This document shows, one piece after another, positions 9,741 through 46,452 of a stretch of DNA of 64,000 nt. Under the pieces are notes generated by a model. That model was not told the DNA's origin and did not search any database. It saw only the letters and a program-made list of their open reading frames with translations. The stretch covers positions 1 to 64,000 of the forward strand of contig JBHLLG010000005.1 of NCBI GenBank assembly GCA_048885925.1, written 5' to 3'. Position 1 is the first letter of the stretch, and each line of letters begins with the position of its first letter. Both the position numbers and the translations under genes were made by a program. Origin of the DNA: Candidatus Hermodarchaeota archaeon. Lineage in GTDB: Archaea > Asgardarchaeota > Lokiarchaeia > Sigyniarchaeales > SOKP01.

Positions 9741-10610
9741 ATGGAAAATACGGATGAATCACAATTTGGAATTGATTATATTTCCACATCAGGAGTATTT
9801 AAAACTCCTTTTACACTAATTACTTTTTTACAATTAGTAATTGGATGCATGGTAGTAATTTCCATTAATTTATGGTTTTATAATGACCTCTATTTCCTCA
9901 TTACTGGAGAGAGATTTTTATCATATATTATGATTGGGCAATGGTGGGAATGGTTATTACTTCCAATGAATATTTATGGAAATCTTTTATTATTTGCGTT
10001 TTCAATTATCTTATTTTCAACAGTAATCTCCAAAATTTTAAACAAATTCCATCCTCCAAAGGAAGGAGTATTTGAAAGTGGAAGCAAAGAATGGAAATAT
10101 ACACATCGTAGATTTTGGATAGCTTATTTTCCAATTTGGTTGGCAAGGGCGTTACCATTACCTTGGTCTGATATTTTTGTCTATAGGTTTCTTGGAGTTC
10201 ATATCGGCAGAAATGTGGTTGCGTATGAAGGATATATTGATCCTGAGTTTGTAGAGATAGGAGATTATACTATGACTTCTCTTAATATATGCATTTTTTC
10301 CCATTTAATTTACCATGATAGAATTATTATTAAAAAGGTCAAAATAGGGAAGACATGTATTATAGGCCCTCAAACAATAATTTCTCCAGGTACAGTACTC
10401 CAAGATGGGGCGATATTAGGAGCAAATAGTTATACTTGGTTTGATCAGGTCTTGGAAAGCGATTTAATTCATGTTGGAACACCTGTTAGTATGACATTTC
10501 CTATACAAACTATTGAGGAATCTCAAATGAAAGCAGAAAAGATTAGAAACGAAATTCATAATAATAATGATTTTAATAAAAATAGTAATAAGGGAGGAGA
10601 TATAAAGTAA
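9741..10610 (+). CDS. Membrane protein with left-handed beta-helix (hexapeptide) acyltransferase-like domain
   Basis: Two N-terminal TM helices; GVHIGRNV and KVKIGKTCIIGPQTIISPG hexapeptide repeats; GTP closing motif. Confidence 0.7.
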   Translation: MENTDESQFGIDYISTSGVFKTPFTLITFLQLVIGCMVVISINLWFYNDLYFLITGERFLSYIMIGQWWEWLLLPMNIYGNLLLFAFSIILFSTVISKILNKFHPPKEGVFESGSKEWKYTHRRFWIAYFPIWLARALPLPWSDIFVYRFLGVHIGRNVVAYEGYIDPEFVEIGDYTMTSLNICIFSHLIYHDRIIIKKVKIGKTCIIGPQTIISPGTVLQDGAILGANSYTWFDQVLESDLIHVGTPVSMTFPIQTIEESQMKAEKIRNEIHNNNDFNKNSNKGGDIK

Positions 10611-14468: not shown

Positions 14469-14480
14469 GATTATAAAGAG

Positions 14481-14585
14481 CGCTGATGGAGGGATTCGAA
14501 CCCCCGAGCGCTTACGCGCACCGGCTTTCTTGACCATTATTTTTATTACTCGAGGCCGGCGTCTTACCAACTAGGCTACATCAGC
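14481..14585 (-). tRNA. tRNA-Ser(CGA) with 22-nt intron at canonical 37/38 (intron 14527-14548)
   Basis: Acceptor GCTGATG/CATCAGC, discriminator G, anticodon stem CCGGC/GCCGG, anticodon CGA (14550-14552), long variable arm GCGC-GTAA-GCGC, T-loop GGTTCGAATCC. CCA not encoded. Confidence 0.93.
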
Positions 14586-24994: not shown

Positions 24995-26341
24995 TTGAAA
25001 AAGATAAAGGAAGACGTATTTGAAAAAAGTTGTGAGCAATACTTTGATATTCCTGAAGCAATGGGTCTAGATGGAATAGATTTAGAGAAATACATTATTG
25101 CAAGTTATATTATAAAGCGTCCTAGGGGAATGAATGTAAATTATCTGGCACGATTTGCAGCAATTGAGCAATCAACAGGTACATGGGTAAGAGTACCTTC
25201 TGAAACTGCGGAAGTAAGAAAATATCACGTAGCTAGAGTGCTAGGCGTATATGAGTTACCTCATTGGGAATATATTGTTCCAAAAGACGAGAAGGAGAGG
25301 TTTTATTTCGCCCAAATTGCTTTTCCTATAGAAAATGTTAAAGGAATGGGTATACCAATGTTATTAACGACCGTAATTGGAAACATTAGTATAACACATG
25401 GACTGAAATTAGTGGATCTAGCATTTCCCAAAGCATGGTTGGAAGATTTTAAAGGCCCAAAATTTGGGATCGACGGAATTCGAGAATTAATGAAAATACC
25501 AGAGCGTCCACTTTTAAACAACATGGTAAAGCCATGTACTGGCCATTCCTCTGACGTGGCAGCCGATTTGGTTTATAAAGCTGCAGTTGGTGGATGCGAC
25601 GTTGTAAAGGATGATGAATTAATATCAGATCCACCATTCAATAGGCTTGAGGATAGGATTGTAAAAGTAATGGAAGCTGTAGACAGAGCTGATTCTGAGA
25701 AGGGTGAGAAAACATTATATACAATAAATATTACTACTAAATTTCCAGAAATGTTTGAATATGCGGATAAAATGATTGAATTGGGAGCAAATGCTTTAAT
25801 GATTAATTACTTAACAACTGGTTTTGAGGCTCTAAGGCAAATAGCAGAAGATCCTTCTATAAAAGTACCGATATTAGGACATATGGATTTTGGTGGGGCT
25901 TATTTTGGGGGAGAATGGACCGGAATGACAAGTATGTTAACCTTCGCAAAATTACCACGAATTTGTGGGGCAGATACTGTAGTAATTCCTGCACCCTATG
26001 GTAAAGCTGAAATTGTAGAGGAAAGATATGAGCAAAATCTTAAAGCATTGCGATATCCTTTAAGACACATTAAACCAACTCTTCCAATGCCGTCAGGAGG
26101 AATTACCCCAGGGATGGTTGAGAAATGCATAAAAGAAGCTGGTAAGGACATCCTTATAGGTAGTGGGGGTGGAATTCACAGTCATCCCGATGGACCAATA
26201 GCAGGGGCTAAAGCATTTAGGCAAGCAATTGATGCTGTAATGGAAGGTAAAAATATTAGAGAAGTTGCTAAACAAAAGAAGGAATTAGGTGTAGCTCTTG
26301 GAGTATGGGGTAGTGGAAAAACTGCTTTAATAGAAGAATAA
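24995..26341 (+). CDS. RuBisCO-like protein (form IV)
   Basis: EQSTGTW, GPKFG, KDDE, YGK and PSGG are present, but the K177, R295 and H327 equivalents are replaced (KPCTG, GHMD, TVVIP). Confidence 0.85.
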   Translation: MKKIKEDVFEKSCEQYFDIPEAMGLDGIDLEKYIIASYIIKRPRGMNVNYLARFAAIEQSTGTWVRVPSETAEVRKYHVARVLGVYELPHWEYIVPKDEKERFYFAQIAFPIENVKGMGIPMLLTTVIGNISITHGLKLVDLAFPKAWLEDFKGPKFGIDGIRELMKIPERPLLNNMVKPCTGHSSDVAADLVYKAAVGGCDVVKDDELISDPPFNRLEDRIVKVMEAVDRADSEKGEKTLYTINITTKFPEMFEYADKMIELGANALMINYLTTGFEALRQIAEDPSIKVPILGHMDFGGAYFGGEWTGMTSMLTFAKLPRICGADTVVIPAPYGKAEIVEERYEQNLKALRYPLRHIKPTLPMPSGGITPGMVEKCIKEAGKDILIGSGGGIHSHPDGPIAGAKAFRQAIDAVMEGKNIREVAKQKKELGVALGVWGSGKTALIEE

Positions 26342-43359: not shown

Positions 43360-44859
43360 TTATAATTTTATAACTAGATCACTTTTCTTTTTAAAATCAC
43401 TTAAAAATGTTGGTAATTGATTCAATCTATTAAAACTTAGATCTAAGACTTTTAGATTAGATAATAAGCTTATAGATTTGGGGAGGGTTTCAACTTGGTT
43501 TCCCCAAAGATTTAATTCTTCTAATGAATTAAGTTCGCCGATCCATTCTGGTATTTGAGTAAAATTATTCCAACTTAAATTAAGTTTCTTAATTTTACGT
43601 AAAAATTTAAATGTTTCTGGTAAATGTGAAAGTTGATTATTTCTTAAAACCAATACTTCTAAAGAATATAAATTACCCATCGATTTTGGCAATGCAATTA
43701 TATTATTGTCATATAGATCCAATATTTTTAATAATTGAAATGAACAAATCCATTTTGGAATCATTTTTAATTTATTTCCACTCATACCAAGACTTTCTAA
43801 TGACTTAAGCGATTTTATAGTAGTTGGGACCTCTAAAAAGTTATTCCACCCTAACTCTAATTCTTTAATTGAATTTGGCAGTTTAAATTCTATTGAATTT
43901 ATTTTATTCCCATGCAGGTTTAAGTTCTCGAGGAATTTGAGAGATTTAATTGATTTAGGTATTTTGTTAAGCATATTATTCCTTAAATTGATTGTTTGAA
44001 GTAGTTTTAAACTACTTAAAGATTCAGGTATAGATCTTAATCGATTAGATTTCAAATTTAGATGTTTTAGAGAGGTTAAATTTTGAATAGATGTTGGAAG
44101 GTTAATTATTTTATTATAACTCAAATCTAATGAAATAATTGAATCTAATTTTTTTGAGATTTCTGGTATATACATTAAATTGTTAAATCTTAAATCAAGA
44201 ACCTCAAGATGCTTTAAAGAACTTATTATTTCGAGGAAATCTGGTATAAAGATTCCTTGAGGATCTACATTCGTTAAATCTAACGTAGTAACATAGCCGA
44301 AATTATCAAATTCATATTTTAAATAGCCAAAGCGAATTTTTAAAAATGAGATAAAATAATAATTTATCAAAATTTCAGCAAGTTCTTGAGTGGGAATATT
44401 TTCAATTTTTCTTGCTCTAAAGGAGTTTTTTAAATTATATTTGCATTTTTGATTATAAAGAGTGTTTAATTTCTCCATTAAGATAAATCTAGATTTTAGA
44501 TTATTGATTTTAGATAATGTGGAGATGGCTGTAATCATGCATCGTAAGGATGTTTCATGTTCAATAACCCATTTCATTGGTTCTAAGGCTTTATGTAAAA
44601 AAAATTTTTTCATGTAAGATGCTGCGATATTTCGTATTTTTTCATCTGAATCAGAAACTAGTAGATTTTCTAAGAGTTTAAATACTTTTTCATCTTTACT
44701 TTGGATTTTCTTTAGGATTTGAAGGCACTCTATTCTAATATCAATATTATCAGTATTTTCTATAAAAGTAATCAGTAATTCAAGAGCAGAAGAGTAATCT
44801 AAATCTTTATTTCTTAAATTCTCGTAAATTGCTTTTGGAGTTAAAGACATATTATTCAT
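43360..44859 (-). CDS. HEAT-like plus leucine-rich repeat protein
   Basis: About 12 LRRs; close paralog of 37959-39461 (LENLLxSD, PMKW, WxxxLxSLEELNLWGN). Confidence 0.88.
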   Translation of the reverse strand: MNNMSLTPKAIYENLRNKDLDYSSALELLITFIENTDNIDIRIECLQILKKIQSKDEKVFKLLENLLVSDSDEKIRNIAASYMKKFFLHKALEPMKWVIEHETSLRCMITAISTLSKINNLKSRFILMEKLNTLYNQKCKYNLKNSFRARKIENIPTQELAEILINYYFISFLKIRFGYLKYEFDNFGYVTTLDLTNVDPQGIFIPDFLEIISSLKHLEVLDLRFNNLMYIPEISKKLDSIISLDLSYNKIINLPTSIQNLTSLKHLNLKSNRLRSIPESLSSLKLLQTINLRNNMLNKIPKSIKSLKFLENLNLHGNKINSIEFKLPNSIKELELGWNNFLEVPTTIKSLKSLESLGMSGNKLKMIPKWICSFQLLKILDLYDNNIIALPKSMGNLYSLEVLVLRNNQLSHLPETFKFLRKIKKLNLSWNNFTQIPEWIGELNSLEELNLWGNQVETLPKSISLLSNLKVLDLSFNRLNQLPTFLSDFKKKSDLVIKL

Positions 44860-44883: not shown

Positions 44884-46452
44884 TTAGACTCTTTGAATCA
44901 CCATACCTCCTAACCTTATTGGACCACCGCTAGCATTGTATATTTTTTCTGCCTTTCTTAATTTGGATTCACTATGAGAGTAAACTTTAAAAACAAGATC
45001 TCCCTTTTTAATTTTTGCTCCTTGTTTTTTAATTATTTCTACACCAGAAACTTTAGAACTTGGACATCCTGCAGCTTTAGCAATCTGATTAATTATTGAA
45101 TTATTTACTTCAACAATATATCCATCTTTAGTGGCAAAGAATTCTTTTATGTGTGGTCCTAATTCAATATCTTCTGGAGTAATTTCCGGATCACCGCCTT
45201 GAGCTTCAATGATTTTTTTCATTTTTTCGTAAGCTTTTCCAGAACTTAAGATGTCTTTAGCTAGAGTTTGACCCATACCTTTCTGAGCTTTACCACTCAT
45301 TTCAAGAAGAATACCTGCCAAGTCAGTAGATTTTTCTATTAAAGAATTTGGGCCAGCAGAATAATCGCGTAATAGTGTAAGAGCTTCTTTAGCTTCTATA
45401 GCAGGCCCTACAGCATGACCTATAGGTTGATGAGCTAGTGTGAGGGCGCATTCAGCTTCAATACCTACATTTGCAGCAATTTCTTTAAATAAATAGGCGA
45501 ATTGTTTTCCCTTATCAGCGGTTGTAAATTTAGTTCCTTCACCCACAGGTATATCAAGTACAAGCTTTTTTACTCCTAGAGACAATTTTTTTGTAAGGAT
45601 TGAGGGTATCATAAGACCAATAGGATCCATATGTAAGGGGCGTTCGATTTCAATTAATATGTTATCTGCAGGTGCTGTTTCAAGCGCTCCACCCCATATT
45701 ATACAAGCATTTTCTTTGGATACAATTTCTTTTAATTCTGTCGGTGTGAACGCAACAGGGGCTAATACTTCCATAGAATCTGCGGTTCCAGATGGAGATG
45801 TTATTGCTCTTGTAGAAGATTTTGGAATTGTTAATCCTGCTGCTGCAACAATTGGTACTATAATAAGAGAGACTTTATTTCCAGGAACGCCGCCTTTTAA
45901 CAAAACTTACGAAATGTAAATTTTTGTGCTATGTTTATCATAGACATCCATTCCAAAATAAAAAATCTCTCCACTTCGTGTTTCTGCTAACGTTAAAGCT
46001 GTCATCTCTTCATTATCCATTCCATTAATTGCAACTCCAGTTATAAAAGCAGCTAAATCGATTCGTGACAAGGAACCTGAGACAGCATCAGATACGATCT
46101 TACCTATTTCTTCACTTGACAATCTATTTCCTTTAACCTTTTTTTGAATATATTTAAATGAATCTGGTGGATCTGCCGGTTTAACTGAAAGTATCATATC
46201 ATCTTTTAAATTTCTTTTTTCCCGCAATATATTCAAAAATATACCAATTTCACCTTGTTTAACAATAGAATCCGAATAATCTATTTGTAATATTGCTACC
46301 CAGTATTTTTCTTCAATAGATTTTGTCTGCGGATTTTTAATAATGATCCTTTCTCCTGCCTTTTGCCCGAGTTCTTGAGCATCTTTAATGTTTACAACTA
46401 CATCTTTAGTATTTCCTGTTTCAAAATTTATTTTTTTTACTTTAAGTTTCAT
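44884..46452 (-). CDS. deoA: AMP phosphorylase (thymidine phosphorylase family); exons 46452-45926 and 45895-44884, 512 aa after removal of a 30-nt intron
   Basis: The two listed ORFs are in the same frame and join into DKHSTGGVPGNK; also IPKSSTRAITSPSGTAD, IWGG and QPIGHAVGP. Confidence 0.9.
45896..45925 (-). other. Putative BHB/BHL-type mRNA intron (30 nt, contains in-frame TAA)
   Basis: RNA UAGC-AC^A-AAAAUUUAC-auuuc-GUAAGUUUU-GUUA-AA^A: 4-bp central helix, two 3-nt bulges and a 9-bp intron stem. Canonical cuts restore ACA GGC GGC. Confidence 0.8.

Follow-up and report, generated by a model that had tools for sequence, protein, structure and literature searches.

A probable bulge-helix-bulge intron in the AMP phosphorylase gene of an Asgard archaeon, with similarly built inserts in six further protein-coding genes of the same genome

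The DNA analyzed here (the window) is a stretch of 64,000 nucleotides (nt) from Candidatus Hermodarchaeota archaeon, positions 1 to 64,000 of the forward strand of contig JBHLLG010000005.1 in the GenBank assembly GCA_048885925.1, a draft genome of 181 contigs. Its minus strand carries the only AMP phosphorylase gene of this genome, the coding sequence of which is interrupted by a 30-nt insert with an in-frame stop codon that is very probably an archaeal bulge-helix-bulge (BHB) intron of the class HBh'. As a result of the interruption, the gene appears as two abutting minus-strand open reading frames (ORFs), one of 181 amino acids (aa; 45907..46452) and one of 339 aa (44884..45903, with a TTG start inside the insert). 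The locus can be laid out as follows.

45926..46452, minus strand: predicted exon 1 of AMP phosphorylase, from the ATG (46450-46452) to the AC of a Thr codon; ORF; matches positions 1-165 of the TIGR03327 profile; Glycos_trans_3N domain
45896..45925, minus strand: predicted 30-nt intron with an in-frame TAA (45907-45909); same-site insert in relatives
44884..45895, minus strand: predicted exon 2 of AMP phosphorylase, beginning with the last base of the Thr codon and ending with the TAA stop (44884-44886); matches positions 167-500 of the TIGR03327 profile; Glycos_transf_3 and PYNP_C domains

The minus-strand sequence across the site reads GAT AAA CAT AGC ACA AAA ATT TAC ATT TCG TAA GTT TTG TTA AAA GGC GGC GTT CCT GGA AAT AAA, such that the insert splits the conserved motif DKHS-T-GGVPGNK between S and T/G. 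Compared separately with the NCBIfam equivalog profile for AMP phosphorylase (TIGR03327), the two pieces score 109.2 and 447 bits; the protein read through the insert scores 556.4 bits, with a curated cut-off of 535, and covers profile positions 1-500. The nearest solved structures are 4ga5, 4ga6, and 4ga4 (E = 2.7e-120). To judge by its sequence, the gene product is an AMP phosphorylase that is otherwise complete apart from the insert. In silico removal of 45896-45925 yields a 1536-nt ORF of 512 codons without stops that carries DKHSTGGVPGNK. The original prediction had described the interrupted sequence, its in-frame TAA, the split motif and the restoration of a 512-aa frame by excision of exactly 30 nt; the first three match the letters of the stretch and the last was reproduced.

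At the RNA level, the insert and the adjoining exon nucleotides can be arranged into the following elements, given in transcript order.

45928..45931, minus strand: 5' strand of the central helix H, UAGC, exon nucleotides; pairs with 45898-45901
45925..45927, minus strand: 5' bulge ACA; predicted cut between 45926 and 45925
45902..45924, minus strand: intron hairpin h', a 9-bp stem AAAAUUUAC/GUAAGUUUU with the 5-nt loop AUUUC; from folding and covariation
45898..45901, minus strand: 3' strand of the central helix H, GUUA, intron nucleotides; pairs with 45928-45931
45895..45897, minus strand: 3' bulge AAA; predicted cut between 45896 and 45895; no exon helix h follows

Under the definition of BHB motifs that we adopted (bioRxiv 10.64898/2026.10.13.758758, section 4.8), in which the bulges hold the cut sites and a flanking helix has at least 2 bp, the element belongs to class HBh', with all four pairs of H, 9 bp in h', 0 bp in h and two 3-nt bulges on opposite strands; the available text of that preprint counts HBh' as a canonical class. 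The helix, the two bulges and the hairpin, as well as the unclosed pair next to the 3' bulge that makes the motif a relaxed one, lie where the original prediction had placed them. Within each bulge, the cut made by the tRNA-splicing endonuclease EndA falls after the second base, as follows from the position of canonical tRNA introns at 37/38, and such cuts would take out exactly 30 nt and restore the frame; sliding both predicted cuts by one base gives an identical spliced product. The predicted spliced junction is CATAGCACAGGCGGCGTT, and the intron-less congeners carry the same junction in their DNA.

We infer that the intron is excised by EndA and that the exons are ligated by RtcB. In the pre-mRNA, the four exon bases UAGC would pair with GUUA near the 3' end of the intron, forming a central helix flanked by a 3-nt bulge on each strand, with the 9-bp hairpin on the intron side. 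EndA would cut in both bulges and RtcB would join the exons to give ...CAU AGC ACA GGC GGC..., reading DKHSTGGVPGNK in the 512-aa enzyme, and the intron would be released as a 30-nt linear or circular RNA. On the unspliced mRNA, translation would stop at the TAA after 181 residues. This interpretation, which is also that of the original prediction, is supported because the insert is conserved at the same site in relatives, its helices show compensatory changes, both exons are under purifying selection, EndA and RtcB genes are present, six further genes of the genome are similarly interrupted, and the nearest public records point to an Asgard origin.

With respect to conservation, the gene was found in 39 of 40 related genomes, which comprised 24 of the genus, 23 of them with a match, and 16 from other families of the order. 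Within the genus, seven of the 23 matches are 30 nt longer and contain internal stops (G005, G016, G017, G020, G022, G023 and the present genome, G000), with the insert at the identical site in all seven; the other 16 lack it, and no match from the other families has stops. When the insert is removed, all seven genes become uninterrupted 1536-nt ORFs carrying DKHSTGGVPGNK, and they contain no other stops or frameshifts; of 20 genus genes compared (seven carrying the insert, 13 lacking it), YDKHST is found in 19 and FDKHST in the intron-less gene of G001. A wider sample consisted of the 80 best public loci, from one-genome-per-species contigs; the record titles name Promethearchaeota or Promethearchaeia, along with a few other Asgard labels (NCBI assigns Promethearchaeota to the same kingdom as Thor-, Odin-, and Heimdallarchaeota). 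Among these loci, 21 have a 30-nt insert at this site, two a 31-nt insert and 56 none, and one is unreadable.

The 23 distinct homologous inserts permit a comparison of the helices across relatives. In total, 98.0% of the 299 pair cells are paired and 10 of the 13 pairs have changed on both sides (33 cells); none of 500 shuffles reaches any of the five measures used, and sliding the partner by 1-3 columns leaves 29-49% of cells paired. The central helix is paired in 100% of the 23 sequences, with two of its four pairs changed on both sides and the outer pair being UA in 17 sequences and CG in six, and the h' stem is 97.1% paired, with eight of nine pairs changed on both sides. Even within the seven sequences of the genus, where both helices are 100% paired, four pairs have changed on both sides. 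Several of these changes couple the exon to the intron: six sequences have CAC in place of CAT as the His codon and, opposite it in the intron, G in place of A, so that a synonymous exon change is compensated in the intron, and a synonymous AGC to AGT change is likewise matched by an intron change. Furthermore, some relatives have wholly different stem sequences that are still perfectly paired, e.g., UAUAUUGAA/UUCAAUAUA in L195. Comparison of the homologous inserts thus clearly points to an RNA structure under selection. Both things that an alignment of orthologues had been proposed to reveal, the presence of the intron elsewhere and compensatory change, were found, in 23 of 80 loci and in 10 of 13 pairs, respectively.

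The claim that the flanking exons additionally pair with each other over about 21 bp was not supported as a feature of the intron. In this sequence the pairing is present, with 19 of 19 pairs of the outer helix in the minimum free energy (MFE) structure and z = -3.93 over 105 nt. It is not specific to intron-bearing genes, because it is almost as complete in 13 orthologues that lack the insert: on average 17.3 of 19 pairs form with the insert vs. 16.5 without it (one-sided Mann-Whitney p = 0.12, the rows being kin). The exon-exon helix is therefore largely a by-product of conserved codons, and two compensatory-looking pairs in it among the seven genus sequences carry little weight.

Pairwise estimates of the ratio of nonsynonymous to synonymous divergence (dN/dS; Nei-Gojobori) indicate that the interrupted genes are constrained. 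The median is 0.067 (0.045-0.098) for the 21 intron-bearing pairs and 0.060 (0.030-0.100) for 76 of the 78 intron-less pairs, two pairs with saturated dS having been dropped; the N- and C-terminal halves are alike in this respect. Given that dS is mostly above 1, such low ratios imply that strong purifying selection has long acted on the gene while it carried the stop-containing insert. The sequence of the insert has been better conserved than synonymous sites.

In a maximum-likelihood gene tree of 20 of the 23 genus genes (three without a locus were left out), computed with the insert columns removed, the seven intron-bearing genes do not form one clade, and their monophyly is rejected by the approximately unbiased (AU) test (p = 2e-83). 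At least five changes are needed on the tree, of which the well-supported branches force at least two, and intron-bearing genes stand beside intron-less sisters with support of 100/99; the number of gain and loss events is uncertain because this is a gene tree with saturated synonymous sites. The intron is also present, with stems that have diverged, in more distant relatives (74-78% protein identity). This distribution fits an old intron in this Promethearchaeota (Asgard) lineage that has undergone several precise losses. No other copy of the hairpin occurs within three mismatches in the genome, hence it is not a repeat element.

The genome encodes the enzymes that such splicing would require. 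There is one EndA gene (G000:C22:7621-8214), encoding a protein of 198 aa with the N-terminal and catalytic domains, and one RtcB gene (G000:C12:26362-27669). The best solved relative of this EndA is chain 3p1z_B (E = 5.5e-38, aligned over the full length), which we take to be the catalytic subunit of a crenarchaeal heterotetramer; the EndA loop GFFGSPLGINKPR aligns with GYYGQPLDVEKPR of 3p1z_B, a loop that presumably confers broad specificity, and the loop region holds the KPR lysine, which presumably matters. The accessible part of an earlier study presents Asgard EndA as an (alpha-beta)2 enzyme with the L1 loop (PMC5829648). Introns are also frequent in the tRNA genes of this genome (19 of the 31 genes called by aragorn genome-wide), many of which were probably missed, as only 31 were called. 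In the window itself, aragorn in its intron mode calls a tRNA-Ser(CGA) gene with a 22-nt intron (14480-14585, minus strand); a tRNA search without intron mode gives no tRNA gene in the whole window.

Several observations weigh against a BHB intron spliced by this machinery. The local hairpin does not exceed shuffled sequence in stability (z = -0.41 over 56 nt and z = -0.91 over 50 nt). Since the exon helix h is missing, cleavage would need an EndA of broad specificity, and a second (beta) EndA subunit was not found by Pfam or tblastn in the assembly, which is 95% complete. In a cell without a nucleus, ribosomes would have to be kept off the unspliced mRNA. A search for RNA data covering this stretch gave no run, and four metatranscriptome runs from the same studies contain no contig on 45600-46200 at 90% likeness, which is evidence neither way. 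Finally, the motif by itself is common. Scanning the whole genome for BHB motifs by which two open frames would be joined produced 26,894 matches and was useless because adjacent genes satisfy its criterion. A stricter scan for the hairpin architecture gave 130 matches at L = 20-60 and, at L = 20-45, 69 vs. 61-71 after a 2- or 3-nt shift of the 3' partners; limited to stems of at least 8 and loops of at most 12, it gave eight matches vs. 4-9 with shifted partners. BHB-plus-ORF motifs being as common with shifted partners, the motif alone carries no weight, and as these scans have no power, we called further introns by motif-free comparison of orthologues only.

For this census, we took ORFs of at least 120 aa from the complete congeneric genome G006, of which 2.0 Mb (60%) was covered, and from G031, a genome of another family, of which 0.4 Mb was covered, and compared them with the present genome by tblastn, and the reverse comparison was made too, in search of inserts with stops or frameshifts in well-aligned coding sequence; 1616 of the 1903 six-frame ORFs of G006 had matches. 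The genome-wide search for split genes that the original prediction had called for, which by motif had done no better than its shifted controls, by this route gave six further stop- or frameshift-bearing inserts of 29-34 nt in the present genome, bringing the interrupted protein genes to at least seven. In the lines below, a slash marks the insertion point in the protein.

G000:C2:56851-56880 (= L204:2352-2381), minus strand: EF-2, 30 nt, TDS/DDEEQERGITI; contains TAA
G000:C6:5548-5581 (= L205:549-582), plus strand: Prismane/CO-dehydrogenase family gene, 34 nt, YMPI/CDMCC; frameshift
G000:C12:62467-62497 (= L206:1768-1798), minus strand: Ras-family GTPase, 31 nt, in TIGVDF; frameshift
G000:C13:~10205-10233 (= L207:506-534), minus strand: aIF5A, 29 nt, hypusine loop GKHGHA/K; frameshift
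G000:C7:85463-85492 (= L208:1264-1293), plus strand: Amidohydro_3 gene, 30 nt; contains stop
G000:C15:18539-18569, minus strand: JAB/MPN protein, 31 nt, HSHPGFK/VMMSHID; frameshift; family called on the orthologue

All six inserts have a complete central helix (4/4) with bulges at the register that restores the exact reading of the orthologue; four of the six are not multiples of three in length. Five were folded with ViennaRNA and adopt the shape of helix, bulge and hairpin, with z from -1.39 to -4.22. The EF-2 insert (z = -3.08) repeats the layout of a 4-bp helix, 3-nt bulge, 9-bp stem and 5-nt loop. This intron is shared at its site by seven genomes (G000, G015, G001, G021, G046, G023, G016), 27 of the 30 fetched loci being readable; its covariation is weak, with 96.7% of cells paired, a two-sided change in one pair only, and equally good pairing in 66 of 500 shuffles. 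A paralogue of EF-2 with 35% identity contains no stops. Elsewhere in EF-2, the gene of G053 (L234) has three stops and no insert at the site used in the present genome, and the match in G016 (L237) is 57 nt longer than intron-less genes; both suggest further candidate intron positions within this gene.

The insert in aIF5A, a single gene, folds into the helix UGCA/UGCA, an 8-bp stem, the loop AUUUC and a 5-bp exon helix (z = -4.22); our geometry script returned a mirror arrangement and ViennaRNA the usual one, with identical spliced products. Among the 39 genus genomes with a match, only the present one has this intron, and its open frame is 119 aa long vs. at least 142 aa elsewhere, except for one locus at a contig end; this confinement suggests that the aIF5A intron may be a recent gain. 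No other copy of its hairpin lies within three mismatches in the genome. In the Prismane/CO-dehydrogenase family gene, which has a 4Fe-4S domain, removal of the insert gives KPTYMPICDMCC, exactly as in G006. The insert in the Ras-family GTPase interrupts what we take to be switch I, and its MFE fold prefers a register slightly off that of the BHB. G006, in turn, has three 30-nt stop-bearing inserts, all with BHB geometry, in genes that are absent from the present genome.

L060, ~17488, plus strand: STYSCNL/CAV
L104, ~10049, minus strand: SGGL/GPTFDD
L115, ~1977, minus strand: KEKYWD/WGSG

All ten inserts sit in strongly conserved protein motifs and differ in their stems, and the hairpin loops are alike across inserts (AUUUC, AUUUC, AUUUA, UUUUC, AUAUC). 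The placement in conserved motifs could reflect ascertainment bias, or the exon half of the motif might have to stay constant. Other candidates were rejected: an insert of 582 nt on G000:C17 is an in-frame extra sensor domain without stops, C13_o53 (228 nt) rested on 42-46% identity, C1_o89 had an offset of -4, and C8_o21/G006c had a 10-nt offset and no convincing motif.

Taking the interrupted genes together, we consider it likely that mRNA splicing by the tRNA-splicing machinery is routine in this Asgard genus, and that stereotyped mini-introns of approximately 30 nt have been gained and precisely lost across its protein-coding genes. In this type, a 4-bp helix would be combined with two bulges of 3 nt and a hairpin of 8-9 bp whose loop often resembles AUUUC; at least seven genes would have it, including those for the essential translation factors EF-2 and aIF5A and for the Ras-like GTPase. 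The suggestion that the intron in AMP phosphorylase acts as an on/off switch is not supported.

Four other explanations of the insert were considered. It is distinctly unlikely that the 30 nt are excised by machinery other than EndA and RtcB, such as a different hairpin-specific endonuclease with a ligase, or a self-cleaving RNA, the BHB-like shape being coincidental. The lack of helix h and the single EndA gene would agree with this. Nonetheless, what has been conserved is precisely what defines a BHB substrate, namely a helix of 4 bp and, on opposite strands, two bulges of 3 nt. A search of the region against Rfam gave no match to any family, including the ribozymes, at E up to 1, and at 30 nt the insert is shorter than the known self-splicing introns.

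Alternatively, the gene could be genuinely split, with the insert as a spacer, the 181-aa and 339-aa products (the latter from the TTG at 45903) assembling into the enzyme and the hairpin serving re-initiation or mRNA stability. Split genes occur in some archaea, and an in-frame TTG lies within the insert and has been retained in many relatives as a component of the stem and the central helix. Against this we set the position of the break, which would separate S from T in the invariant DKHSTGG loop, and the finding that in six relatives (L191, L193, L195, L198, L201, L203) exon 2 is preceded, at a distance of two codons, by an in-frame TAG that is not followed by any ATG, GTG, or TTG. Moreover, covariation keeps the exon-insert helix at the exact geometry of 4 bp and 3-nt bulges, for which a spacer has no need, and four of the six sister inserts shift the frame, in small single-domain proteins such as aIF5A. 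A split gene accordingly has only a slim chance of being the correct description.

Translational recoding, in which ribosomes bypass or read through the 30 nt without any RNA processing, has a precedent in the 50-nt ribosomal hop in gene 60 of phage T4, and the insert is short, contains a stop, forms a hairpin and has AAA codons at both ends. Yet two or three in-frame stops are present in many of the relatives, a Lys would enter DKHSTGG if ribosomes took off and landed at AAA, and the insert of G017 reads GAU UGG at its 3' end and so offers no AAA landing codon. The covarying helix joins the exon to the 3' end of the insert, which bypass does not require, and the same RNA geometry also accommodates sister inserts of 29, 31, and 34 nt; we regard recoding as highly improbable. 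A pseudogene or an assembly artefact, which an in-frame stop in a catalytic motif in a draft of this many contigs might bring to mind, has next to no probability, given that the insert recurs in 23 of 80 independent public loci, that dN/dS in both halves (0.067) equals that of intact orthologues even though dS exceeds 1, that none of the seven genes has other stops or frameshifts, that the insert is more conserved than synonymous sites and shows compensatory changes, and that the absence of a second hairpin copy speaks against a repeat element.

A BHB intron spliced by EndA and RtcB has its closest parallel in the cbf5 gene of Crenarchaeota, whose pre-mRNA intron was reportedly described in work of 2002 (Watanabe) and 2006 (Yoshinari), as later papers cite it. 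In both cases a BHB-type intron lies in a protein-coding gene and its removal is needed for a functional protein. The available text of a study of cbf5 describes a patchy distribution with an old gain and secondary losses, similar to the situation here, and considers that loss could have proceeded via reverse transcription of spliced mRNA (PMC2738675). The differences are in the hosts, the crenarchaeal orders Desulfurococcales and Sulfolobales as against the Asgard archaea (Promethearchaeati), in the gene, here AMP phosphorylase, and in number, cbf5 being a single gene whereas at least seven protein genes, AMP phosphorylase among them, are interrupted in the present genome. Furthermore, splicing of cbf5 was shown experimentally, according to the accessible parts of the citing papers, whereas here it is predicted. 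A 2020 paper, in its available text, calls cbf5 the only coding-sequence example, besides one intron in a 5' untranslated region (UTR; PMC7714728), and the accessible parts of papers from 2018 and 2025 refer to the cbf5 work only for such introns. The UTR case, HVO_1309 of Haloferax volcanii, resembles the present one in being a short (46 nt) BHB intron in an mRNA that is a substrate of the archaeal splicing endonuclease and is released in circular form; it differs in that it lies in the 5' UTR of a euryarchaeal gene, where no reading frame is interrupted, and was shown by circular RNA sequencing (circRNA-seq) and in vitro cleavage, again going by the available text (PMC7714728). Non-canonical tRNA introns of Asgard archaea share with the inserts described here the lineage, the presumed enzyme, the motif classes, the repeated gains and a motif-free census, as far as the available text of the preprint goes; that work deals with introns in tRNA genes, and its available text does not contain the word mRNA (bioRxiv 10.64898/2026.10.13.758758). 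As in that study, tRNA introns are abundant in the present genome (the 19 of 31 aragorn calls given above).

A more remote analogy is provided by HAC1/XBP1, where a short non-spliceosomal coding intron is likewise cut out by a protein endonuclease at RNA structures and the ends are joined by RtcB, with a change in the reading of the downstream frame. There, however, the endonuclease is Ire1, which recognizes stem-loops rather than a BHB, and the system is eukaryotic and regulated by stress; regulation is not part of the interpretation that is supported for AMP phosphorylase. A role of RtcB in unconventional mRNA splicing of the HAC1/XBP1 type is reported in the accessible text of PMC8718801.

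Since the mechanism proposed here is that known for cbf5, the kind of intron is already known; within the literature searched, BHB introns in archaeal coding sequences are known from that one gene. The new elements would be a metabolic enzyme of Asgard archaea with such an intron and six further genes of the same genome. Our literature search, for which subscription journals and supplements were largely out of scope, so that an earlier description is possible, turned up no account of BHB introns in protein-coding genes of Asgard archaea. Mini-introns in several protein genes of one genome would be very rare in archaea, and the wider set, which includes essential genes, makes the case considerably more interesting than a single intron. 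If splicing is indeed routine, this would be the first known prokaryote with many coding introns that require removal before translation, in a cell without a nucleus and among the closest relatives of eukaryotes. If splicing is confirmed, gene callers would be mis-annotating such genes in metagenome-assembled genomes (MAGs) of Asgard archaea as split genes or pseudogenes, with distorted metabolic reconstructions as the consequence. Confirmation would also open the conflict between introns and coupled transcription-translation, a central element in thinking about how the nucleus arose, to tests in a living prokaryote related to eukaryotes, and the within-genus polymorphism for intron presence would offer a natural system for the gain and precise loss of protein-spliced introns.

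As for the genomic context of AMP phosphorylase, its pathway partners are intact, with RuBisCO and an IF-2B-family gene side by side on contig 30; published abstracts assign AMP phosphorylase, RuBisCO and the IF-2B-family partner to the pentose bisphosphate pathway. The IF-2B-family gene is ribose-1,5-bisphosphate-isomerase-like. The RuBisCO on contig 30 is the stronger of two matches to the RuBisCO-large family (309.7 bits), and the second, weaker one (165.8 bits) lies in the window at 25466-26308 on the plus strand. The downstream neighbor of AMP phosphorylase (43360-44859, minus strand) encodes a 499-aa leucine-rich-repeat protein, as judged by eye from its translation.

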